Source of the DNA: Patescibacteria group bacterium
GTDB lineage: Bacteria; Patescibacteriota; Minisyncoccia; UBA9983
Assembly (NCBI GenBank): GCA_038063695.1
Contig: JBBTUP010000015.1
Location: 1 to 41,366, forward strand
Length of the DNA stretch: 41,366 bases
Reading direction: 5' to 3'
Shown: in pieces, positions 4,305 to 35,943 of the stretch
Position numbering within the stretch: the stretch's first letter is position 1
How the letters are laid out: each line of letters starts with the position of its first letter
The notes under the pieces: model-generated
Databases searched by the model: none
Told to the model about the DNA's origin: nothing
What the model saw: only the letters and a program-made list of their open reading frames with translations
Made by a program: the position numbers and the translations under genes

Positions 4305-6782
4305 ATGGATAAAAATGATAAAGAAAAAAAAATACTTCCAATAAACATTTCTTCAGAAATGGAAAAATCATATTTGGACTATGCGATGTCTGTTATTGTG
4401 AGTCGCGCCCTACCTGATATCAGAGATGGCCTAAAACCGGTGCATAGGAGAATACTTTACACAATGCATGAGGTTGGGCTTAATCATTCCGCAAAATTTA
4501 AAAAATCAGCGGCTGTTGTAGGTGATGCTTTAAGCAAATATCATCCGCATGGCGACATTGCTTTATATGACGCAATGGCGAGAATGGCTCAAGATTTTTT
4601 AATGCGCTATCCTTTAGTTGATGGTCAAGGAAACTGGGGTTCTATAGACGGAGATTCGCCTGCTGCTTATCGTTATACAGAAGCAAGAATGACAGCCATG
4701 GCCGATGAAATGCTTAAAGATATTAATAAAGATACTGTTGATTTTAGGCCTAATTATGACAATAGATTAAAGGAGCCGATAGTTTTACCAAGCGCTATAC
4801 CTCAGCTTTTGGTAAATGGGTGTATGGGTATTGCCGTGGGTATGGCTACTAATATTCCTCCGCACAATCTTTCCGAAGTTGTTGATGCTACTATTTATTT
4901 TGCAGATAATCCTAAGGCAACCACAGAGGAATTAATGAAATTTATAAAAGGCCCTGATTTTCCTACGGGCGGGCTTATTTTCAATCCCAAAGACATTCAT
5001 CATGCGTACGCTTCAGGTCGTGGAGGTATAGTGACGCGAGGTGAGGCGGAGATTACAGAGTCAGGCAAGGGCGCTTTCCAAATAATAATTTCTTCTATAC
5101 CTTATCAAGTTAATAAATCAGAATTAATTATAAAAATGGCTGAATTAGTTAACGAGAAAAGACTGGAAGGTATAAGAGATATAAGAGACGAATCAAGCCG
5201 GGAAGGAATAAGGATTGTTGTTGAATTAAAATTAGGAATTAATCCCCAAAAAGTTTTGAATAATTTATACAGGCATATTGACCTTGAGAAAATGTATCAC
5301 TTCAATATGCTTGCCCTGGTGGATGGCGGCACTCAGCCGCAGATTCTTACTCTGAAAATGATACTGGACGAATTTATAAAACACAGGAAAATTATAGTGG
5401 AAAGAAGGGCAAAATTTGATCTGGCCAGAGCTCAAGATAGAGCCCATATCCTTGAAGGACTAAAAAGGGCCTTAGATCGCATAGACGCGGTAATCAAGAT
5501 AATAAAATCATCCAAAGATAAAGAAGCCGCACATGTTAAATTAAGAGAGAAATTTAAATTCACAGACAGACAGACAGAAGCCATTCTCGAAATGAAACTT
5601 CAGACTTTGGCTGGATTAGAAAGGCAAAAAATAGAGGATGAGTTAAAAGAAAAACAAAAATTGATAAAAGATCTTCAGGCCTTGCTTAATGACCCCAAGA
5701 AGATTCTTAAGGTTGTAAAAGACGAATTGACGGAAATTAAAGATAAATATGGCGACGAGCGTAAAACTAAAATAGTGGAGCATATGGCAAAGATAATGTC
5801 TGTTGAAGATCTGGTCCCAGAAAAAGAATCCGTCCTGGTTATTACGAAGGGCGGTTATGTCAAGCGTTCTGACCCATCTTTTTACAAATCACAAAAAAGG
5901 GGCGGAATAGGTGTTATTGATATGAGTACGAAAGACGAGGATTTTGTAACGATTTTTTTAACTGCCAATACTCATGATGATCTGCTTTTCTTTACAGATA
6001 AAGGCAAAGTCTATCAAACAAAGATGTTTGAGATACCGGAAGGCAAACGCGCAAGCAAGGGTAAATCAATTGTTAATTTTCTTTCGCTTTCCTCAGAAGA
6101 AAGAGTAACTTCAGTGCTTGTGATACCTAAGAACTTAGAAGCAAGGCTTCCACTTGGAAGCCTTGCTTCTAAGGAGACAATAGGTTTGATAATGGTTACT
6201 AAGAACGGTATAATTAAGAAAGTAGCACTTTCAAGTTTTAAAGACGTAAGAAGTAGTGGTATTATTGCTATAAGATTAAGCAAGGGAGATGAATTAATGT
6301 GGGCAAGCATTGTTTCAAAAGGAGACGATGTTATTTTGATCACAAAACAAGGACAGTCAATTCGTTTTAAGGAATCAGACGCGAGAATTATGGGAAGAAC
6401 TGCAGCAGGAGTTAGGGCCATAAGATTGAAAAAGAATGATGAATTGATAGGTACCGGAGCAATAAAGAAAAGCGAGAAAACATTATCTCTTTTGACAATG
6501 AGCAAGAATGGTTTTGGAAAGAAAACTGATATTAAAAATTATCGTCTGCAAAAAAGAGGGGGCTCTGGCATAAAGACATCAAAAATTACAAGTAAGACAG
6601 GCGAACTGATAGCAGCATATATTATTAATCCTGAATTTGAAGAGATAATCGCTATATCAAAAAAAGGTCAGGTTATAAGAACTTCTCTTTCAGGTATTCC
6701 AATGCTTGGTAGGCAGACCCAGGGAGTGCGAATTATGAAACTTAAACCAGGAGATAGTATCGCGTCGCTTACTTGTTTGTAG
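4305..6782 (+). CDS. gyrA: DNA gyrase subunit A
   Basis: [30 protein letters not shown], active-site [10 protein letters not shown] and C-terminal beta-pinwheel repeats; 825 aa. Carries the in-frame palindrome at 6134..6173. Confidence 0.97.
6134..6173. repeat. REP-1-derived doublet palindrome (CTTAGAAGCAAGGCTTCCA-CT-TGGAAGCCTTGCTTCTAAG) in frame inside gyrA
   Basis: Perfect 19-bp arms with a 2-nt spacer. Each arm contains the REP-1 core GAAGC-AAG-GCTTC. Translated as [13 protein letters not shown] with no stop or frameshift. Confidence 0.9.
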
Positions 6783-7617: not shown

Positions 7618-8157
7618 ATGTTTGTAAGTCCCGAGCAAATAGTAAAAAATTTAGGCATAGAGCCAGGTATGATCGTGGCTGATTTTGGGTCTGGCACTGG
7701 CCATTATACAGTTGAGGCCGCTAAGTTGGTCACAAAGGCGGGCAAAGTTTATTCCATAGATATACAGAAAGAAATGCTCCAGACGTTGAAATCGCGTTGC
7801 GAGATTAATGGTCTAGACAACGTGGAAATCATTTGGGCTGATTTGGAATTGCATGAGGGCACGCGTTTAGGCTCAGGATTAATTGACCTTGTCATAATTT
7901 CAAATATTCTTTTTCAGGTTGATGATAAAAAGGCAGTTGCTAAAGAGGCATATAGAATAATTAAAAATACAGGCAAGGTTGCTATAATAGAATGGGATAT
8001 GACAGAAAGCAAAATTGGCCCGCCTGCCAGCCAAAGGATAAGTTCAAGCGAGGCCGCGAAGATTTTTGAAGAAGCCGATTTCAGTTTTTATAAAAATTTT
8101 GAGACCGGAGACAATCATTACGGATTATTATTTAGAAAATTAGAAAAAAATGAGTAA
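7618..8157 (+). CDS. Class I SAM-dependent methyltransferase
   Basis: Motif I VADFGSGTGHYT, then the DIQ and ISNILF motifs; 179 aa. Confidence 0.8.
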   Translation: MFVSPEQIVKNLGIEPGMIVADFGSGTGHYTVEAAKLVTKAGKVYSIDIQKEMLQTLKSRCEINGLDNVEIIWADLELHEGTRLGSGLIDLVIISNILFQVDDKKAVAKEAYRIIKNTGKVAIIEWDMTESKIGPPASQRISSSEAAKIFEEADFSFYKNFETGDNHYGLLFRKLEKNE

Positions 8158-9460
8158 ATTTCAAATTATCACTTTTTCTGTAATAGGAGTTATTATTTTA
8201 ATTGCGCTCTTTACTTTTATGGGGGCTATCCCTTCACCAAAAGGTTCCACTCAAAAATTTGTGGAATTTAAATTATGGGGGACTATTCAGCAAGAAGGTT
8301 TTAATAAGTTTGTTGACTTGGTTAGTTCAAAAAATCAGAAAATTTTTAAAATAAATTACATTAAGAAAGACTCTGAAAAATACGAAAACGAACTGGCAAA
8401 CGCTTTTCTCACAGGAAATGCTCCTGATATGTGGATGATTACTCAGGATATGATCTGGGATCATAGGAATAAAGTTGAATTAATACCTTACAAATCCTTG
8501 AGTTATAAAGATTTTACAGATACCTTTATTGAAGAAGCAGAATTGCTGTTAATAAAAGAAGGAATAATCGGAATTCCAATTTTGACAGATCCGATGGTGC
8601 TTTATTGGAATAGGGATATTTTTTCTTCGTCTGGCATTGCTCAGCCACCCAAGTATTGGGACGAAGTTGTTTCTTATGTTCCCCGGCTTACAAAGATTGA
8701 TTCAGCGGGTAATATTTATCAGAGCGGAATTTCCATGGGTGAATTCAGGAATGTAAATAATGCCAAAGAGATTATTTCAATGCTTGTGTTGCAGAAAATG
8801 AATCGTCTTGCAGATCCAGAAAAAAAATCAATGGTTTGGGACAAAAACGAGATTTCTGGCGCCAGCGATATTGAAGACGCAGTAAGATTTTATACGGAAT
8901 TCTCAGATTCCAAGAAGCAGATTTATTCGTGGAACAGGTCCCTTAAAAATTCTCTGGATAAGTTCACAAACGGTTCTTTGGCAATGTATTTTGGGTTTAG
9001 CAGCGAGGCGCTGGATATTCAGGAAAAAAATCCGCATCTAAATTTTGGCATTGTTTCTGTGCCTCAAATTAGGCCTAAAGAAGGCGCTATCGGCGCGAAC
9101 ATCACTTTTGGCAGGATGCATTCTATTGTTTTTTCCAAAATGTCGCCGAATAAATTGAGCGCATTCAATACTGTTTCTAAGATGCAAGACAAGGAATTGC
9201 TTGAGCAATTTGCGGATTCTTATTTTTTAATGCCTGCCACCAGAGAGTTGCTTAATGAAGGGCCATTAGAAAAAGACAAACCTTATCTTGATATTTTTTA
9301 CCAATCTGCTTTGCAGGGTCATGCATGGCTGGAACCAAAGCCGGAGAAAGTTTCCGAAATTTTCAAGGATATGATAGAATCAGTGTCAAGCGGAGAAAAG
9401 AAAATTCCAGAGGCTGTTTATACAGCAACATATAAACTGAATGAACTTTTATCAAAATAA
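8150..9460 (+). CDS. Membrane-anchored extracellular solute-binding protein (ABC sugar-type SBP family)
   Basis: N-terminal TM anchor, about 400-aa periplasmic-binding-like body (PDMWMITQDMIW, LYWNRDIF). No permease or ATPase gene is adjacent. Confidence 0.6.
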   Translation: MSKFQIITFSVIGVIILIALFTFMGAIPSPKGSTQKFVEFKLWGTIQQEGFNKFVDLVSSKNQKIFKINYIKKDSEKYENELANAFLTGNAPDMWMITQDMIWDHRNKVELIPYKSLSYKDFTDTFIEEAELLLIKEGIIGIPILTDPMVLYWNRDIFSSSGIAQPPKYWDEVVSYVPRLTKIDSAGNIYQSGISMGEFRNVNNAKEIISMLVLQKMNRLADPEKKSMVWDKNEISGASDIEDAVRFYTEFSDSKKQIYSWNRSLKNSLDKFTNGSLAMYFGFSSEALDIQEKNPHLNFGIVSVPQIRPKEGAIGANITFGRMHSIVFSKMSPNKLSAFNTVSKMQDKELLEQFADSYFLMPATRELLNEGPLEKDKPYLDIFYQSALQGHAWLEPKPEKVSEIFKDMIESVSSGEKKIPEAVYTATYKLNELLSK

Positions 9461-9471
9461 ATTTTAACATT

Positions 9472-9843
9472 ATGATTATCCACAGCACAAAAAAAATATA
9501 TTTGTCCAAGGCATATATTTGGCTTATTATAAATATAGGATTGGTCATGCCTTTAAAAATCGTAATGGCGCAGTGTCAACCAAACACTATCTGCAATCCA
9601 TTAACAGCCGGTTCGTTTAACGCCCTCATTACTTCCTTGGCGAATATAGCGTTTGCGATTGGTTTTCCAATAGCCATTATGTTTATTTTATGGTCTGGAT
9701 TTTTGTTTGTGAGCGCAAGGGGCAATGAAGAACAAATAAAGACAGCAAAGAAAACTTTTACATGGGCGATTATAGGTACGGCGATTCTGCTTGGCGCCAA
9801 AGTGATCGCGGTTGGCATACAAAATACAATACTCTCGCTATAA
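9472..9843 (+). CDS. TrbC/VirB2-like (type IV secretion-type) pilin family small membrane protein, paralog 1
   Basis: Signal-like N-terminus, then two hydrophobic helices separated by SARGNEEQIKTAKK, the pattern of CPR T4SS-type pilins. Confidence 0.6.
   Translation: MIIHSTKKIYLSKAYIWLIINIGLVMPLKIVMAQCQPNTICNPLTAGSFNALITSLANIAFAIGFPIAIMFILWSGFLFVSARGNEEQIKTAKKTFTWAIIGTAILLGAKVIAVGIQNTILSL
9476..9484 (+). promoter_or_regulatory. Perfect DnaA-box 9-mer TTATCCACA (at the start of pilin paralog 1)
   Basis: Exact consensus match only. Confidence 0.25.
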
Positions 9844-9903
9844 ATTATTGATATGTCTTATTATTAAAAATGGTCGATAAATTTTAAAGAAATTTATTAA
9901 AAT

Positions 9904-10242
9904 ATGCAAAAAATTAAAAAATTAATACCTTTAGGAGCGGCCTTGTTGCCGTTTATTGCTTTTGCGCAGACAACATTTGGAAGTATATTAGGTACTATTA
10001 GTACTCTAGTCAGTACCTTAACGACAATCGCTATGGCCGTGGCTTTCCTTGTTTTTCTCTATGGTGTGATAAGATTTATTACTGCTGGAGGTGATGAGGA
10101 AAAGAGGAAAACCGCAAAAAATTTAATCATATACGGATTAATCGGCCTTTTTGTAATGGTTGCCGTATGGGGATTGGTAGCAGTCCTTGCTAGTACATTT
10201 GGTGTTACTACGGGTGGTACTACAAGTTTGCCAACTATATAA
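9904..10242 (+). CDS. TrbC/VirB2-like pilin family protein, paralog 2
   Basis: Signal peptide ending AFAQ, helix, TAGGDEEKRKTAKN loop, second helix. Confidence 0.65.
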   Translation: MQKIKKLIPLGAALLPFIAFAQTTFGSILGTISTLVSTLTTIAMAVAFLVFLYGVIRFITAGGDEEKRKTAKNLIIYGLIGLFVMVAVWGLVAVLASTFGVTTGGTTSLPTI

Positions 10243-10263
10243 TTATCTGTCGGCAATTTTTGG

Positions 10264-10503
10264 ATGAACAATCTTCTTAATAATATAGCCATTCAGATTC
10301 TGAACCCTTTGATAGGGTTCTTGATCTCGGTTGCTTTTCTTGTCTTTATATGGGGGATTGTGGAATTGATTTATGGATCGGATAATGAAGAAAAGGTTAA
10401 AATAGGCAAAAGGCATTTGGTGTATGGTTTGATAGGTCTGTTTATAATGCTGGCGGTTTTGGGAATTATGAATGTTACCCAAAATTTTATTAACAGTTTG
10501 TAA
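10264..10503 (+). CDS. TrbC/VirB2-like pilin family protein, paralog 3 (no obvious signal peptide)
   Basis: Helix, GSDNEEKVKIGKRH loop, helix LVYGLIGLFIMLAVLG. Same architecture as the two upstream genes. Confidence 0.55.
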   Translation: MNNLLNNIAIQILNPLIGFLISVAFLVFIWGIVELIYGSDNEEKVKIGKRHLVYGLIGLFIMLAVLGIMNVTQNFINSL

Positions 10504-10520: not shown

Positions 10521-10560
10521 AAAAAACGGGTGAGCCTTGGGCTCACCCGTTTGAGTTTTT
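10521..10560. terminator. Bidirectional rho-independent terminator
   Basis: 11-bp stem ACGGGTGAGCC/GGCTCACCCGT with loop TTG, an A-run upstream and a T-run downstream, between convergent genes. Confidence 0.85.
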
Positions 10561-11020
10561 ATCTTTGCATTGTTTGCATTGATTTTTGGTATTTTTGGTA
10601 TTGGTAGTGTTTATAAATTTTTTCGCTTCTGTACCAGCCAACCAATACAATTGATAGGAATATCAGGAAGACAATAAATCTTACAAGACCTCTTCCTATT
10701 CTAATGGTCGGTATCCTTATCTTCTTCTTTTCTGTTAGTATAGTTTCTTTGCCTTCTTTCTTTCTGGTCTTTCTCCATTTTTTAAATAAGAAGAAAGAAA
10801 TTGGAATGACAATAATTAGAAAAAAAGGAATTAAGAAACCTATTGCAGTGTAAAAAATAGAAATCTCAGAGATCGTGTTTCCTATATTGATTAACACTTG
10901 AATTCCTTTTACCAATAGGATAATGAAAAAGATCGAGATTGCGAAGTATACGAAGTAGATTCCGTTTAACCACATAAGATCATATAGTGCCTTGAGGATA
11001 TTCTTGATTTTTTCTTTCAT
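10559..11020 (-). CDS. Multi-pass membrane protein, unknown function
   Basis: Several hydrophobic helices and a basic loop KKWRKTRKKEGK. ATGA start/stop overlap with the upstream SPFH gene. Confidence 0.6.
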   Translation of the reverse strand: MKEKIKNILKALYDLMWLNGIYFVYFAISIFFIILLVKGIQVLINIGNTISEISIFYTAIGFLIPFFLIIVIPISFFLFKKWRKTRKKEGKETILTEKKKIRIPTIRIGRGLVRFIVFLIFLSIVLVGWYRSEKIYKHYQYQKYQKSMQTMQR

Positions 11021-12072
11021 TTTTTATCCTCCTCTTTTTCTTTACCAAGCCATCCTTTCATAATATCTTTGATTGAGCCGAATGGGAATATTATAAGATT
11101 ACTTGGACCTTGGCCAGTTTTTTCAATTGCTTCTACAGTTCGTATATACATTCCTTGTTCGCCGTAACTTGTGATTTTTCCATAGACTCTTTCCATTCTG
11201 TTTACATCAGCATCGGCTAATGTTTCTATTCTTTCTTTTTCTTTTTCAGCAGACCATTTTTTGGCGGCTTCTTCGGTGAATTTTGTTCCCCATTCTCCCG
11301 CAGGGTCGATCTTTACCATTTCCACAGCCACAAGTTCCACTCCATAAGTATCTTTAATAAAATTATCCACCTGACTGTCTTTTAGGAATGAGTTTGCCTC
11401 GTCTTCAACTGCTTCTCTTTGCTCAGTCAATTCTTCAAATGTCTTTTTCCTTGTGAAAGATCGGTACGCTGGTTTTACTCTATTTTGAGTTGCCTCCAGC
11501 CATTTTTGTATCCTGAACAGCGCTTTATACGGATTTACGACCCGCAAAGTAAGAAGAAGAGAAACATCAACAGGAATCATTCCTTTTGTCTCTGCTTTGT
11601 CCAAAAAAGTGAAATACACATCATCTTGAACCAAGATAAAACTTATGTCTTTCTCTTCCTTAGTAATTGGTTTTTCAATGGTTTTTTCGCCTTCTCTTAC
11701 TTGTTCATAAGATGTCCATTCAAAGCGATATAAGTGGACTTTATTTATAAACGGAATACCTATCCATTTTAATCCTCCTGTTATCTTCTTTATCCAATCC
11801 AAGATCTTTCTGAGGAGTTTTTCTTCTACTGATGGTGATTCATCAATCTTTTTTACATTCCATTCTGCATCTAGGTAATGCCCTTTGTAGGACATCACTA
11901 TTTTTCTGCATTTTCCAAAACGCAGAATCGCCTTTGCCGTTCCTTCTTGAACAATGGTAAAAAATACATTATATCTTGCCAGATTGTATATAAGTACAAC
12001 AATCGCAAGCATAGAAAGCAGTGTCAAAAGCGTGATACTTCCGATTTTTAATCCAATCCAAAAACTTTCCAT
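11017..12072 (-). CDS. SPFH/band-7 (stomatin/prohibitin-like) domain protein
   Basis: N-terminal TM helix, then FTIVQEGTAKAILRFGK and a long alpha-helical C-terminal part. AGGAGG SD upstream. Confidence 0.6.
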   Translation of the reverse strand: MESFWIGLKIGSITLLTLLSMLAIVVLIYNLARYNVFFTIVQEGTAKAILRFGKCRKIVMSYKGHYLDAEWNVKKIDESPSVEEKLLRKILDWIKKITGGLKWIGIPFINKVHLYRFEWTSYEQVREGEKTIEKPITKEEKDISFILVQDDVYFTFLDKAETKGMIPVDVSLLLTLRVVNPYKALFRIQKWLEATQNRVKPAYRSFTRKKTFEELTEQREAVEDEANSFLKDSQVDNFIKDTYGVELVAVEMVKIDPAGEWGTKFTEEAAKKWSAEKEKERIETLADADVNRMERVYGKITSYGEQGMYIRTVEAIEKTGQGPSNLIIFPFGSIKDIMKGWLGKEKEEDKK

Positions 12073-12170
12073 ACGCCCTCCTATATTTTATTGATAGTTT
12101 TTAAGGTGTAGTTATCTAAGATAACTTTAATCTGCCTATATTATATATTATAATCTACATCTTTGTCAAG

Positions 12171-12207
12171 TATCACACATTTTGCCGATAGGTAATGATA
12201 GGTGAGA
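12171..12207. promoter_or_regulatory. Palindromic element A (TATCACACATTTTGCCGATAGGTAATGATAGGTGAGA), operator-like
   Basis: Member of a 3-copy family TATCAC..TTGCCGATCGGCAA..ATAGGTGATA. It abuts a minus-strand TTGACA -35 directed at the SPFH operon. Confidence 0.5.
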
Positions 12208-12271
12208 GTAAGACAGTAAGAATGATATTAAGAATAAGAGAGAAAAAACAATTTAATATCTAAAGGATAAA

Positions 12272-12859
12272 TTATAGGTTGTAATGATTTTTTAAAATGA
12301 TTTCGTCTCGAGGGTCTATTTTTTGCGCAATGAAAAAGTGGATATATTTTCTTATATTTAAAATTTCACTTATAAAATCAATTTCATCTTCACATGGGAA
12401 TGGGCATATAAAAACGCTTTTTTGGAGTGGATAAATTTCCATATCGTTTAATTTATTACTTAACGCCTTCCTTCCTTTTCTGTGTTTTTCTGGGATGTCA
12501 AAGGATATGATTCGCCACGAACCGTCCCATTTTTTTGGTCTGGTTATTTTTATATCGTCAAATTTATAAATTAAGACACGTTTTTCTCCGTTCACTGTTA
12601 TTTTAATTATTTCTTTGTCGTCTTTTTCGTAAATTTCAATTAATTTTTGTTTTTGTAGTGTTCGCATTGTTCTTTTTATTCTATACCTGTCTTTTGCGTT
12701 TTTGACGCCGAATAGAGAAAAAACTTGTGGCAGATTAGGCAGGGCAAAACTGGCTATAATCAGCCCGCCTATCGCCAGCCCTTTTAAGATTTCTTTTGCC
12801 AGTTCTCCTTTTTTATAATCATTTCTTATTGATATTTTTTCTTTTGTCATCCTGGTCAT
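12272..12859 (-). CDS. Membrane-anchored PaaX-like regulator (winged-helix plus PaaX C-terminal/Cas2-like fold)
   Basis: TM helix LAIGGLIIASFALPNLPQVF, wHTH-like RTMRTLQKQKLIEIYEKDDK, and WDGSWRIISFDIPEKHRKGRKALSNKLNDMEIYPLQKSVFICP, which matches the PaaX C-domain signature W.G.W..v..D.PE..R..R..L...L...G...LQ.SVw..P. Confidence 0.6.
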   Translation of the reverse strand: MTRMTKEKISIRNDYKKGELAKEILKGLAIGGLIIASFALPNLPQVFSLFGVKNAKDRYRIKRTMRTLQKQKLIEIYEKDDKEIIKITVNGEKRVLIYKFDDIKITRPKKWDGSWRIISFDIPEKHRKGRKALSNKLNDMEIYPLQKSVFICPFPCEDEIDFISEILNIRKYIHFFIAQKIDPRDEIILKNHYNL

Positions 12860-12897
12860 ATTTTAGTTTTATTATAGATATAATTTATAAGTTCATA

Positions 12898-12935
12898 CTA
12901 TCACATATTTAGCCGATCGGCAAGATAGGTGATAG
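12898..12935. promoter_or_regulatory. Palindromic element B (CTATCACATATTTAGCCGATCGGCAAGATAGGTGATAG), operator-like, upstream of the PaaX-like gene
   Basis: Lies 39 nt upstream of the start codon. On the minus strand it contains TTGCCG-17-TAGTAT, a plausible promoter. Confidence 0.5.
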
Positions 12936-12972: not shown

Positions 12973-13043
12973 TGCGGGCACGGAGAGTCGAACTCCGGTC
13001 TCGTCCTTGGCAAGGACGCATTCTGCCACTAAACTATGCCCGC
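12973..13043 (-). tRNA. tRNA-Gly (GCC)
   Basis: Hand-folded cloverleaf: acceptor GCGGGCA/TGCCCGC, anticodon stem CGTCC/GGACG, loop TTGCCAA, T arm CGGAG-TTCGACT-CTCCG. Confidence 0.9.
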
Positions 13044-13086
13044 GATTATGAAATTATATCATAAACATGGCGTGCCCCGTACAAAA

Positions 13087-13170
13087 TGCTGGGGGGGAGA
13101 TTTGAACTCCCAATCTCTTGCGAGAATCAGGTTCTAAGCCTGACGCGTATGCCAATTCCGCCACCCCAGC
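13087..13170 (-). tRNA. tRNA-Leu (UAG), type II with long variable arm
   Basis: Acceptor GCTGGGG/CCCCAGC, anticodon stem TCAGG/CCTGA, loop CTTAGAA, T arm GGGAG-TTCAAAT-CTCCC. Flanked by 14-nt perfectly complementary sequences. Confidence 0.9.
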
Positions 13171-13184
13171 ATTTTGTACGGGGC

Positions 13185-13355
13185 AAATCTGCCATCTTGC
13201 CCCGTAGTTAAAGCGGATCTTTATACTATGAGGTTCACCACTCGCCCGATTTTTTCCGCCCACCAGGAATCGAACCTGGAACCTTCTCCTTTCCGCCCTA
13301 GGCGGACCAGCCTCGGGATGAAAGAGGGAGATGCCCCGCCCCCTGCCATCGCCTA
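13185..13355 (-). ncRNA. Unassigned GC-rich spacer with tRNA-like fragments (T arm plus acceptor 3' strand; tRNA-Leu 5' fragment)
   Basis: CCAGG-TTCGATT-CCTGG-TGGGCGG at 13256..13279 (minus sense) and GGGCGAGTGGTGAACC at 13232..13247, which copies the 5' end of tRNA-Leu(UAA). I could not fold a complete cloverleaf. Confidence 0.3.
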
Positions 13356-13428
13356 TGCTCCGTGAGGGTCTCGAACCCCCGACCTTCTCCTTAAGAGGGA
13401 GCTGCTCTACCAACTGAGCTAACGGAGC
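13356..13428 (-). tRNA. tRNA-Lys (CUU)
   Basis: Acceptor GCTCCGT/ACGGAGC, D arm GCTC-AGTTGGTA-GAGC, anticodon loop CTCTTAA, T arm GGGGG-TTCGAGA-CCCTC. Confidence 0.85.
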
Positions 13429-13543
13429 GTAGGACATGGCGGGCAGGTCTACCAATTGACCCGTTCGCATCGCTACGCTTAGGCCGCTAGGCGGGGCGAG
13501 ACTATGGGCGGGAAAATGTGCGTGGCCTTCCCTGTACAGGTGG
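13429..13543 (-). ncRNA. Unassigned GC-rich spacer with a D-arm-like motif
   Basis: GGTC-AATTGGTA-GACC (13446..13461, minus sense) and hairpin CCGC-TAG-GCGG. No complete tRNA could be folded. Confidence 0.3.
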
Positions 13544-13626
13544 TGGGCGAGGAGGGAGTCGAACCCTCACCCGCTTACGCGGACAACATTTTAAGTGTTG
13601 CGTGTATACCATTCCACCACTCGCCC
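13544..13626 (-). tRNA. tRNA-Leu (UAA), type II; CCA apparently encoded (13541..13543)
   Basis: Acceptor GGGCGAG/CTCGCCC, anticodon stem CAACA/TGTTG, loop CTTAAAA, T arm GAGGG-TTCGACT-CCCTC. Confidence 0.9.
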
Positions 13627-13694
13627 ACCACCTATACGGGGTGAATATACCAACTTGCTCTTTATATTTTTATCATTTACTATTTTATCTATAA

Positions 13695-13766
13695 GGCCGT
13701 GTAGCCAAGTGGTAAGGCAAGGGTCTGCAAAACCCTTATACGTGGGTTCGATTCCCGCCACGGCCT
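13695..13766 (+). tRNA. tRNA-Cys (GCA)
   Basis: Acceptor GGCCGTG/CACGGCC, anticodon stem AGGGT/ACCCT, loop CTGCAAA, T arm GTGGG-TTCGATT-CCCGC. Confidence 0.9.
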
Positions 13767-14086
13767 CATTTTTTTAAAAGTTCGTCTATCCTAGCTCTGT
13801 TTTTTTCGCCAGTGTCTATCTCAAAATCAAAAGACGGAAGGAATTTAATTTTGAGCCGTGATTTACAATAATTTTTGAAGTCATTTTTTTTCTTTTTTAG
13901 GATATCAATCACTTCCTTTTCTTTATTGTCGGGCATCACGCTTATAAAAATTTTTGCTGATTTTAGGTCTGGTAATATTTGCGCGCGTATTACCGTTATA
14001 AGCGAAGAGGACTCAATTCGCGATCCGATAAATAAGCTTGCTATTTCTTGCAGGAGGGAATTTATTTTTTCCTGCCTTAAGGTCAT
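13766..14086 (-). CDS. rbfA: Ribosome-binding factor A
   Basis: About 105 aa, RQEKINSLLQEIASLFI and the C-terminal FDFEIDTG pattern. Sits directly downstream of infB as in the conserved operon. Confidence 0.85.
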   Translation of the reverse strand: MTLRQEKINSLLQEIASLFIGSRIESSSLITVIRAQILPDLKSAKIFISVMPDNKEKEVIDILKKKKNDFKNYCKSRLKIKFLPSFDFEIDTGEKNRARIDELLKK

Positions 14087-23419: not shown

Positions 23420-23456
23420 TATCACCTATATTTGCGATCGCCACAAATAGGTGATA
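23420..23456. promoter_or_regulatory. Palindromic element C (TATCACCTATATTTGCGATCGCCACAAATAGGTGATA)
   Basis: 10-bp perfect outer arms TATCACCTAT/ATAGGTGATA and an inner GCGATCGC. Same family as elements A and B. Confidence 0.5.
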
Positions 23457-23463
23457 ATGCAAT

Positions 23464-23505
23464 GTGCATGACTCAGTGATGCACAGTGATGTAATGCACA
23501 GTGAT
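23464..23505 (+). repeat. Direct repeats ATGCACAGTGAT x2 (15-nt period) plus a degenerate third copy
   Basis: Read directly. They abut the DnaA-box 9-mer at 23506. Confidence 0.7.
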
Positions 23506-23514
23506 TTATCCACA
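23506..23514 (+). promoter_or_regulatory. Perfect DnaA-box 9-mer TTATCCACA
   Basis: Exact consensus match, 6 nt upstream of a TTGACT -35. Confidence 0.3.
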
Positions 23515-23519
23515 TCAAT

Positions 23520-23548
23520 TTGACTTTTTCGCTCCCATAGTGTATTAT
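23520..23548 (+). promoter_or_regulatory. Promoter TTGACT-17-(TG)TATTAT
   Basis: Motifs and spacing read directly. Serves the gene at 23619. Confidence 0.55.
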
Positions 23549-23618: not shown

Positions 23619-24134
23619 ATGCCGTGGGAAAAATTCGGAGAAATTTCGTATGATTTTGAAGAAGATCTTTTTGAGCAAAGGAGATTAAAGGGGCAATTGC
23701 ATAAGATTAAAAAACCCCCAGATAGTTTGATTTCTGAAGTGTCCCTTGATCCGCTTCGGAGACTTATTATGGCAGAAAAAGATGGAATAAATGTTTTTGA
23801 TAAAAAATTTTCTCTCTTTGTTGATATTAAAGATTTAATTACAGATGATTCAGATGAAAATTCAGATTGGCTAATAGAGCCGACAGAAGAAGATTTAAAA
23901 CCGCGTGAAATTTCTGTTAATAAAGAAGATTTTGAAATTAAAAAAATACCGGCATTTTTTGTTCCGTTTTCTCTTGCAAAAGAATTAAATATTGAACGAA
24001 AGTTGAAATTTTTGCCTGACAGTCACGGCAAAAGAGGAAGAAAGCCAATATTGAGAAAACATAAGAAACGGACACAAAGAGAACGAAATTTTATTGCAGA
24101 AAAATTAAGAGAAATAGTTGAGGCGGGAGCATAG
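23619..24134 (+). CDS. Hypothetical protein with acidic middle and basic C-terminus (GKRGRKPILRKHKKRTQRERN)
   Basis: ATG 23619 is preceded by an AAAGGAG SD. The track start at 23604 lies within that SD. Confidence 0.55.
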   Translation: MPWEKFGEISYDFEEDLFEQRRLKGQLHKIKKPPDSLISEVSLDPLRRLIMAEKDGINVFDKKFSLFVDIKDLITDDSDENSDWLIEPTEEDLKPREISVNKEDFEIKKIPAFFVPFSLAKELNIERKLKFLPDSHGKRGRKPILRKHKKRTQRERNFIAEKLREIVEAGA

Positions 24135-35903: not shown

Positions 35904-35943
35904 AACACTCGGTGTCTCACAATTTTGTGCGACACCGAGTGTT
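35904..35943. repeat. Long near-perfect palindrome AACACTCGGTGTC(T)CACAA-TT-TTGTG(C)GACACCGAGTGTT
   Basis: 18 of 19 positions pair. No clear T-run follows. Lies in the KH-trmD spacer. Confidence 0.8.

Follow-up and report, generated by a model that had tools for sequence, protein, structure and literature searches.

A PaaX-like gene between two copies of one palindrome, and a Patescibacteria-wide family of small proteins with candidate paired DNA sites

How does a small PaaX-like gene relate to the palindromes that lie around it? The question is raised by the window analysed here, the whole stretch of 41,366 nucleotides from a Patescibacteria group bacterium, which is contig C15 of a 529-kb assembly in 73 contigs (35% G+C; 92% complete). 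A sequence-only reading of the window had found three copies of a palindrome and had taken them as three promoter operators of one membrane-anchored regulator, which they would tie to an SPFH operon. The pattern that we found is instead one of bracketing: every paralogue of the gene in this genome, and 92% of its distinct relatives, lie between two palindromes. Judging from the sequences, these palindromes most likely serve as duplex DNA sites to which small PaaX-like proteins of the candidate phyla radiation (CPR), here called mini-PaaX, bind.

A palindrome on either side of the mini-PaaX gene

The gene and the palindromes of the window are the following.

12272..12859, minus strand: mini-PaaX gene, 195 aa, with a winged helix-turn-helix (wHTH) and a Cas2-like domain, without PaaX_C
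12899..12934, no strand: copy B, putative upstream cognate site of the mini-PaaX gene, core CCGATCGG, arms TATCACATAT / TATCACCTAT
12895..12923, minus strand: putative own promoter of the gene, TTGCCG (12923-12918), 17-nt spacer, TAGTAT (12900-12895), inside copy B
12171..12207, no strand: copy A, putative degenerate downstream cognate site, 37 bp, core CCGATAGG
23420..23456, no strand: copy C, solo site, core GCGATCGC, arms as in copies A and B

The sequence-only reading had located all three copies correctly (12171-12207, 12899-12934 and 23420-23456). The pattern TATCAC-N20-30-GTGATA matches the window twice, at copies B and C, against 0.01 matches expected, and two or more matches arose in 0 of 100 shuffles. 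Copy B (TATCACATATTTAGCCGATCGGCAAGATAGGTGATA) and copy C (TATCACCTATATTTGCGATCGCCACAAATAGGTGATA) are exact TATCAC/GTGATA dyads with N24/25 between the hexamers. Copy A (TATCACACATTTTGCCGATAGGTAATGATAGGTGAGA) is a degenerate member of the family, with GTGAGA in one arm; the half-site consensus TATC[A/C]C[A/C][C/T]AT is nevertheless kept in each half. As for the likeness to a lambda operator that had been proposed, we found nothing beyond the common hexamer TATCAC.

We then investigated the rest of the genome. A jackhmmer search with the protein of the window returned five paralogues, on contigs C15, C8, C66, C11 and C39. For the sites, a strict scan (GCKATMGC, ungapped arms) gave three and missed the CCGATCGG and ACGATCGT cores as well as 1-bp offsets, and it was replaced by a symmetry-scored scan for CGATCG-type dyads. 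Listing every CGATCG of the genome brought up more long dyads with a common centre and very different arms; at a symmetry of at least 12/17 there were 13 genome-wide, against 0-3 in shuffled genomes. All five paralogues were seen to be bracketed, upstream and downstream, by CGATCG-centred dyads of 36-44 bp with paralogue-specific arms. Since each of the five thus stands between two sites with matching arms, the gene of the window has copies B and A as its pair of brackets. The bracketing is also present where the next gene downstream converges on the paralogue (C8 and C66), so that the downstream copy cannot be explained as a mere operator of the promoter that follows.

Members of the TATCAC family outside the window lie at C7 9049-9084, C8 4925-4961, C8 5584-5619 and C21 4000-4035. 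In the 0.53-Mb, 92%-complete assembly there are about seven solo copies for the five cassettes (site-gene-site units), with 0-3 solo copies per site family; six of the seven are intergenic, in a genome that is 90% coding sequence, and several are positioned just past stop codons. The sequence-only reading had named scatter inside genes, like that of a REP element, as evidence that would tell against its idea. One copy does lie in frame within ksgA, as described below, which counts against the idea in part; all of the other 16 sites are intergenic.

Two solo dyads, at C3 9322-9363 and C18 8328-8368, have common arms AAAGATGCGTTAAAT and the core GCGATCGC; one of them is located after secY and upstream of hicA, and the other directly after secA. 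No cognate gene for the AAAGATGCGTTAAAT-arm dyads was found in the 92%-complete assembly. Contig C11 (1529 bp) consists of one site-gene-site cassette with about 340 bp on each side, and the cassettes of several relatives are likewise on very short contigs, which may reflect strain-level variation or assembly breaks at cassettes.

The family was followed through loci from 40 related genomes, from a set with a single genome for each species, which gave at least 571 relatives, and from metagenomes, which gave at least 590. It is present in 30 of 41 genomes (the 40 related ones and our own), with up to 13 copies in 0.5 Mb, and the relatives of the window protein are all annotated as Patescibacteria/CPR. 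The upstream and downstream flanks gave a repeat score of at least 17 in 154 of 167 distinct relatives (92%), where mismatched flanks, used as the null, have a 95th percentile of 16; core-type dyads occur in both copies at 133 of these 154 bracketed loci. The sites are 36-44 bp long across the family, and the core is mostly GC[G/T]AT[C/A]GC, with the variants ACGATCGT, CCGATCGG, CCTATAGG, GCATATGC and GCGGCCGC. Flanking copies whose inner part lacks symmetry stand as direct repeats of each other. The family is large and spread through the Patescibacteria; its general layout is site-gene-site, and genomes carry many paralogues, each with arms specific to it. This layout seems to be undescribed, and our literature search found no paper linking PaaX with Patescibacteria.

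Among the asymmetric cores (loci L002-L229), read relative to the gene, GCTA-TCGC (the hyphen marking the dyad) is ~3 times commoner than GCGA-TAGC, with counts of 15 versus 5 upstream and 12 versus 4 downstream.

Fold of the protein and its covariation with the sites

The window protein matched Pfam PaaX_M (PF20803; E=1.6e-21, 76.6 bits against a cut-off of 24) and, just above the gathering score of 23.8, Pfam Cas2 (PF09827; E=3e-05, 24.5 bits). The Cas2 model TIGR01573 gave 19.2 bits, below its cut-off of 24.5, and the PADLOC Cas2 models matched weakly. There was no match to the PF07848 model, though a winged helix is present in the AlphaFold2 (AF2) model, and none to the ligand-binding (phenylacetyl-CoA) effector domain PaaX_C (PF08223), the protein ending at residue 195, one helix past the Cas2-like domain. 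The PaaX equivalog TIGR02277 left the window protein unmatched and gave one paralogue 23.5 bits against a cut-off of 264.55. The AF2 model, made with 80 homologues, has a mean pLDDT of 89.6 and comprises a winged helix (residues 19-87; helices 19-33, 43-49 and 55-70, wing 74-87), a linker helix (89-101), a beta-alpha-beta-beta-alpha-beta Cas2-like domain (115-178) and a C-terminal helix (183-192). The best Foldseek match in the PDB was PaaX (8A39; E=7.5e-05, 181 aligned columns), followed by 3L09 and 3KFW, and Cas2 chains matched the C-terminal half of the model. Across the family, D112, D121, Q146 and S148 are invariant and E124 and E159 nearly so, and the signature Asp of Cas2 is kept. A link to CRISPR was rejected, as Cas1 (PF01867) is absent from the genome (control genomes were positive).

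The sequence-only reading had also assigned a transmembrane helix to this protein. Residues 27-51 are indeed uncharged and hydrophobic, but the AF2 model places them in the first two helices of the winged helix and in the loop between these, which has low confidence, and they align to MarR helices. Since a single-span topology would, moreover, put the DNA-binding domains outside the cell, a membrane anchor is not supported, and we rejected it on these three grounds.

With PaaX, a repressor in E. coli and Pseudomonas that responds to phenylacetyl-CoA (8A39, 3L09), the protein shares a winged helix at the N-terminus and, after it, a Cas2-like middle domain. The operators are also alike in having short inverted repeats ~30 bp apart, TGATTC-N27-GAATCA in E. 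coli PaaX and TATCAC-N24/25-GTGATA here, and E. coli PaaX represses its own promoter by excluding RNA polymerase; the structure of a PaaX-DNA complex was still unsolved in 2022 (PMC9493321). Mini-PaaX differs from PaaX in that it lacks PaaX_C (195 aa against about 305-316 aa) and a paa gene context, that its sites have a conserved core, apparently read by the Cas2-like domain, that its gene has a site on each side, and that there are many paralogues per genome with their own arms, plus solo and intragenic sites. With Cas2 and VapD it has in common the ferredoxin-like fold and the signature (beta-1 ...FDI..., R, QKSVF), whereas here the fold is fused to a winged helix in a genome without Cas1. 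Cas2 is a dimer that lies along duplex DNA, and to our knowledge no sequence-specific base reading is known for it. Like MarR/PadR autorepressors, the window protein has a winged helix that aligns to the MarR recognition helices and a dyad site that overlaps the gene's own promoter, suggesting autoregulation. MarR operators, however, are about 16-20 bp long with adjacent half-sites, whereas ~24 bp, with a distinct core in the centre, separate the half-sites here, and the dimer would form through the Cas2-like domain.

Proteins and sites were compared in 133 pairs. The strongest covariation of arm positions 11, 12 and 14 is with residues i, i+3, i+4 and i+7 on helix 55-70 (R60, R63, T64 and T67) and with a wing residue, and a recognition helix lying in the major groove would be expected to show such a spacing. 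Core position 2 follows the glutamate of DIPE, an invariant motif in the Cas2-like domain: it is A or C in 92 of the 92 called sites where this glutamate is kept, and G or T in 9 of the 13 where it is replaced, a rule that would be explained if the amino groups of these two bases donate hydrogen bonds to the glutamate. Core position 4 goes with the residue three after the glutamate, lysine occurring with C (66/78) and arginine with a base other than C (29/34). The same holds within the genome, where R127 of the window protein pairs with CCGATCGG (copies B and A and the C7 solo site) and the lysine-bearing C8 paralogue with GCGATCGC (sites C8a and C8b, the C21 solo site and copy C of the window). 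These two proteins are 65% identical and have the same arms, and it is the K/R core rule that separates them. Since the core of copy C fits the lysine of the C8 paralogue and not R127, copy C is probably not a site of the window protein. The dimeric wHTH operator that had been read from the dyad symmetry agrees with the arm covariation and with the geometry of PaaX operators, but it probably does not extend to copy C as a site of the same protein.

A repressor with its own sites, weighed against other readings

The explanation that we favour as a whole, and hold to be probable, is that mini-PaaX is a DNA-binding protein of the repressor type with its own bracketing sites. We infer that it would bind double-stranded DNA as a symmetric homodimer. 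The recognition helices (residues about 57-70; R60, R63, T64 and T67) and the wings would read the arms, TATC[A/C]C[A/C][C/T]AT, 9-18 bp from the dyad, and the Cas2-like dimer would lie over the centre, where the first helix turn after DIPE (E124, R127, K131) would read the core CCGATCGG. Binding at copy B would overlap the gene's own promoter and lead to autorepression, like that of PaaX at the Px promoter. As had been noted from the sequence, copy B ends 39 nt from the ATG at 12859 and contains TTGCCG-17-TAGTAT (12923-12895, minus strand); a perfect TATAAT lies further downstream, and the arrangement TTGCNA-17-TAGTAT recurs at C8a and at the upstream site of locus L002. In the family as a whole, hexamers resembling a -10 box are enriched between +25 and +39 from the dyad of upstream copies, with 43 against 15 at downstream copies. 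This indicates that the site extends over the -35 and spacer of the promoter of the gene itself, a position that would suggest autorepression. The idea that the conserved core is a mere -35 hexamer (TTGCGA) with a fixed -10 at +18 was rejected, as the family profile has no fixed -10 but only the broad enrichment at +25 to +39, and cores without TTG exist. Copy A may put the SPFH neighbour under mini-PaaX or may shield the cassette from read-through transcription, and copy C would probably serve the C8 paralogue. The features beside these two copies are the following.

12140..12169, minus strand: SPFH promoter, TTGACA-18-TATAAT, 12/12 consensus matches, 1 base from copy A, reading into the SPFH operon
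11017-12072, minus strand: SPFH/Band_7 gene, Pfam Band_7 4.3e-11
10559-11020, minus strand: membrane-protein gene; the SPFH operon (10559..12072) lies downstream of the cassette
23520-23548, strand not given: promoter near copy C, TTGACT-17-TATTAT, 64 nt downstream of the copy

Several points weigh against this explanation. The covariation is confounded by shared ancestry; K/R and core position 4 each change ~25 times on the tree. An independent-pairs test of these two characters on nine pairs (5.0 same, 0.6 opposite, 3.4 unchanged) ran in the expected direction but was not significant, with a median p of 0.125, in a design that is conservative and underpowered even with 80 metagenome loci added. 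The Cas2-like domain of PaaX itself is described as a dimerisation module and not as a base-reading one. A flexible linker would be required as well, to accommodate arm-to-arm distances that range between 36 and 38 bp. The TTGCCG-17-TAGTAT promoter is weak by consensus and was absent from the promoter-scan list, and a simple autorepressor does not account for the second site past the stop codon, including that between convergent genes (C8, C66). Finally, an in-frame copy in ksgA and an insertion between dprA and topA point to mobility, which lies outside a plain regulator model.

These last two cases carry the reading of the module as a selfish or mobile one, similar to repetitive extragenic palindromic (REP) sequences and their REP-associated tyrosine transposases (RAYTs), in which the palindromes would be element ends and non-autonomous copies, the Cas2-fold protein would nick or cleave the core, spread would be by repair or transposition, and regulation would be secondary or absent. 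Eight relatives have dprA next to topA. A cassette separates the two genes in this genome alone (C8), where it lies in the opposite orientation, and the 31-bp junction of the nearest relative is without a site. The cassette has outward-facing TTGACA hexamers at both ends, and such -35 hexamers are seen at the ends of the F1 cassettes; many insertion sequences also carry them. In ksgA/rsmA (contig C70 729-772, locus L038), a C39-family palindrome makes a 10-aa in-frame insertion (SIPKSSDRKK), which is shared with the relative G005 only (left arm and core identical in DNA) and absent from ten other orthologues; Rickettsia palindromic elements likewise insert in frame in coding genes. Like a RAYT gene, the mini-PaaX gene is flanked by its own palindromes, the same palindromes stand alone between genes, and the site-gene-site unit is gained and lost as a block, so that with the ksgA insertion and these gain events the module resembles REP/RAYT systems. 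The number of gene copies in so small a genome, the direct-repeat arrangement of asymmetric flanking copies and the retained Cas2 signature Asp would also suit mobility. However, the 0-3 solo copies per family contrast with the tens to hundreds typical of REP, copies in one family differ at several positions, which speaks against a recent burst, and neither a target duplication nor exact insertion ends could be defined at dprA-topA, since the cassette there adjoins a terminator hairpin and its flanks have changed. Instead of a Y1/HUH transposase, the protein is a winged helix with a Cas2-like fold, whose invariant residues include no HUH motif and no tyrosine, and the covariation and the build of the sites point to recognition of duplex DNA, in contrast to RAYTs, whose targets are single-stranded hairpins. 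We know of no nuclease activity of PaaX_M domains, and the conserved glutamate behaves as a base reader, which gives a non-catalytic reason for its conservation. With few solo copies, a duplex-type architecture and this account of the glutamate, the regulator reading stays ahead of the mobile one, which we consider rather unlikely as an explanation in itself, and which is compatible with the regulator reading and not exclusive of it. The least credible of all the readings is that the palindromes are recombination sites of the lox/dif type (arm-core-arm), at which circular cassettes integrate into existing solo sites, leaving a copy on each side. The 14 + 8 + 14 bp geometry, the gene-flanking direct repeats, the solo sites and the core common to all families would suit it, but the siteless dprA-topA junction of the nearest relative tells against lox-type integration at an existing site, which was rejected on this ground. 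In addition, it is the arms rather than the core that differ between families, the mostly palindromic cores give no direction, and the cassettes carry no recombinase gene, the PaaX/Cas2 fold being no recombinase.

It is also highly improbable that the palindromes act as hairpins, whether as RNA terminators, stabilisers or processing sites or as cruciform or single-stranded DNA, rather than as duplex protein sites. Copies B (-15.6 kcal/mol, z -5.2) and C (-12.8 kcal/mol, z -3.0) fold well as RNA, the solo copies just past stop codons would suit this reading, and downstream copies are richer in G:T than in A:C mismatches (85 versus 45). Copy A, however, which is the transcribed downstream copy, has no RNA hairpin potential (-4.4 kcal/mol, z -0.43) with both half-site consensuses kept, the sites are not followed by a T-tract, and the G:T excess, which is not seen in upstream copies (55 versus 43), is the same as the excess of T over A that the sense strand has in general (TT/AA 1.75). 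The wobble test thus gives no signal past strand base composition, and an RNA hairpin was rejected on this and on the unfolded copy A. With growing distance from the dyad, symmetry is first high (core), then 0.41-0.63 at positions 5-8 and 0.74-0.90 at arm positions 9-18, and this dip between a symmetric core and symmetric arms indicates a bipartite site without a continuous stem. The core would be the loop of the hairpin, yet it is a conserved palindrome, which a loop does not need and which fits a duplex protein site; in mixed cores, such as GCGATAGC, what is kept is a degenerate half-site (GCKAT) and not base pairing. The covariation of recognition-helix residues with arm bases likewise stands against a hairpin. 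The sequence-only reading, in which three promoter operators put the SPFH operon, a gene placed at 23619 and the gene of the regulator itself under a PaaX-like protein tethered to the membrane, is partly supported, but as a whole we find it very unlikely. Copy B overlaps a plausible own promoter, copy A does abut a TTGACA -35 (a 12/12 TTGACA-18-TATAAT at 12169-12140, minus strand), copy C is upstream of an orphan gene as claimed, all three are intergenic, and residues 27-51 could be taken for a membrane span. However, SPFH orthologues occur in only 2 of 18 relatives, with no CGATCG-type dyad near either of them, and close orthologues of the regulator were found in genomes without SPFH. The close orthologues have other neighbours, namely mraZ and a gene for a sigma-like factor in G005, and dprA and topA on C8 of this genome. 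The co-occurrence of gene, motif and SPFH across related genomes, which had been proposed as a check, thus came out negative, and the regulon is not borne out. Nor did the proposed genome-wide motif search reveal a common function among the genes beside solo sites (DHO_dh-like, arginyl-tRNA synthetase/unknown, a Zn-ribbon protein, an SLT transglycosylase, HicA and orphans). Copy C, furthermore, has the core of another paralogue in a region of orphan genes, the 23604-24134 gene being absent in 18 relatives, and the model makes the hydrophobic residues 27-51 a part of the winged helix. That copy A controls SPFH is plausible for this genome alone; an outward gTTGACA likewise abuts the downstream sites at C8b and L002.

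On the regulator reading, the module is a PaaX-type repressor and operator, reduced to a winged helix and a Cas2-like domain, multiplied into many specificities and almost always placed between two of its own sites, with signs of spread. Patescibacteria have tiny genomes with few recognisable regulators, and at up to 13 copies per 0.5 Mb mini-PaaX may be a major undescribed class of DNA-binding proteins there. The joint change of the recognition helix with the arms, and of the DIPE helix with the core, makes the family a natural library of repressor-operator pairs and offers a testable code. A more far-reaching reading, which we put forward only tentatively, is that the Cas2-fold is a sequence-reading module, the DIPE glutamate reading A/C at +/-2 and the Lys/Arg three residues later reading +/-4, which together with the winged helix makes many distinct protein-site pairs, and that the unit is a self-propagating CPR element, a functional analogue of REP/RAYT built from an unrelated protein. 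If true, base reading by the Cas2-like domain would be a new use of the Cas2/PaaX_M fold, would help explain the wide spacing of PaaX operators and may show how a Cas2/VapD-type fold engages duplex DNA. The bracketing, the gain and loss and the in-frame insertion also raise the question of how palindromes and genes move in genomes with few known mobile elements.

Neighbouring genes and other repeats

A cluster of five tRNA genes (Gly-GCC, Leu-TAG, Lys-CTT, Leu-TAA and Cys-GCA) at 12973-13767 directly adjoins copy B, and tRNA clusters are frequent insertion points for mobile DNA. Next to the SPFH operon, at 9472-10503, three tandem small genes encode membrane proteins similar to type IV secretion system (T4SS) pilins or TrbC, after a gene for a solute-binding protein (8150-9460). 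Right after copy C, at 23457-23510, three spaced CAGTGATG repeats stand within TGCACAGTGAT-like units upstream of the orphan gene's promoter. Tandem Repeats Finder made no call on these repeats, which might be the sites of another protein.

Two other dispersed families were seen. A second, unrelated family of hairpins, CTTAGAAGC-(AAGG/CCTT)-GCTTCTAAG, sometimes in double copy, has nine matches in the window against 0.03 expected; it occurs at 47-67, 269-289, 740-760 and 6134-6173 of the window and also on contigs C2, C4, C10, C18 and C58, and it could be a REP-like or terminator family. Finally, a third palindrome family, GGACACTCGGTGTCC / AACACTCGGTGTC, was found at 35904-35943 of the window and on contigs C10, C21, C27 and C58.

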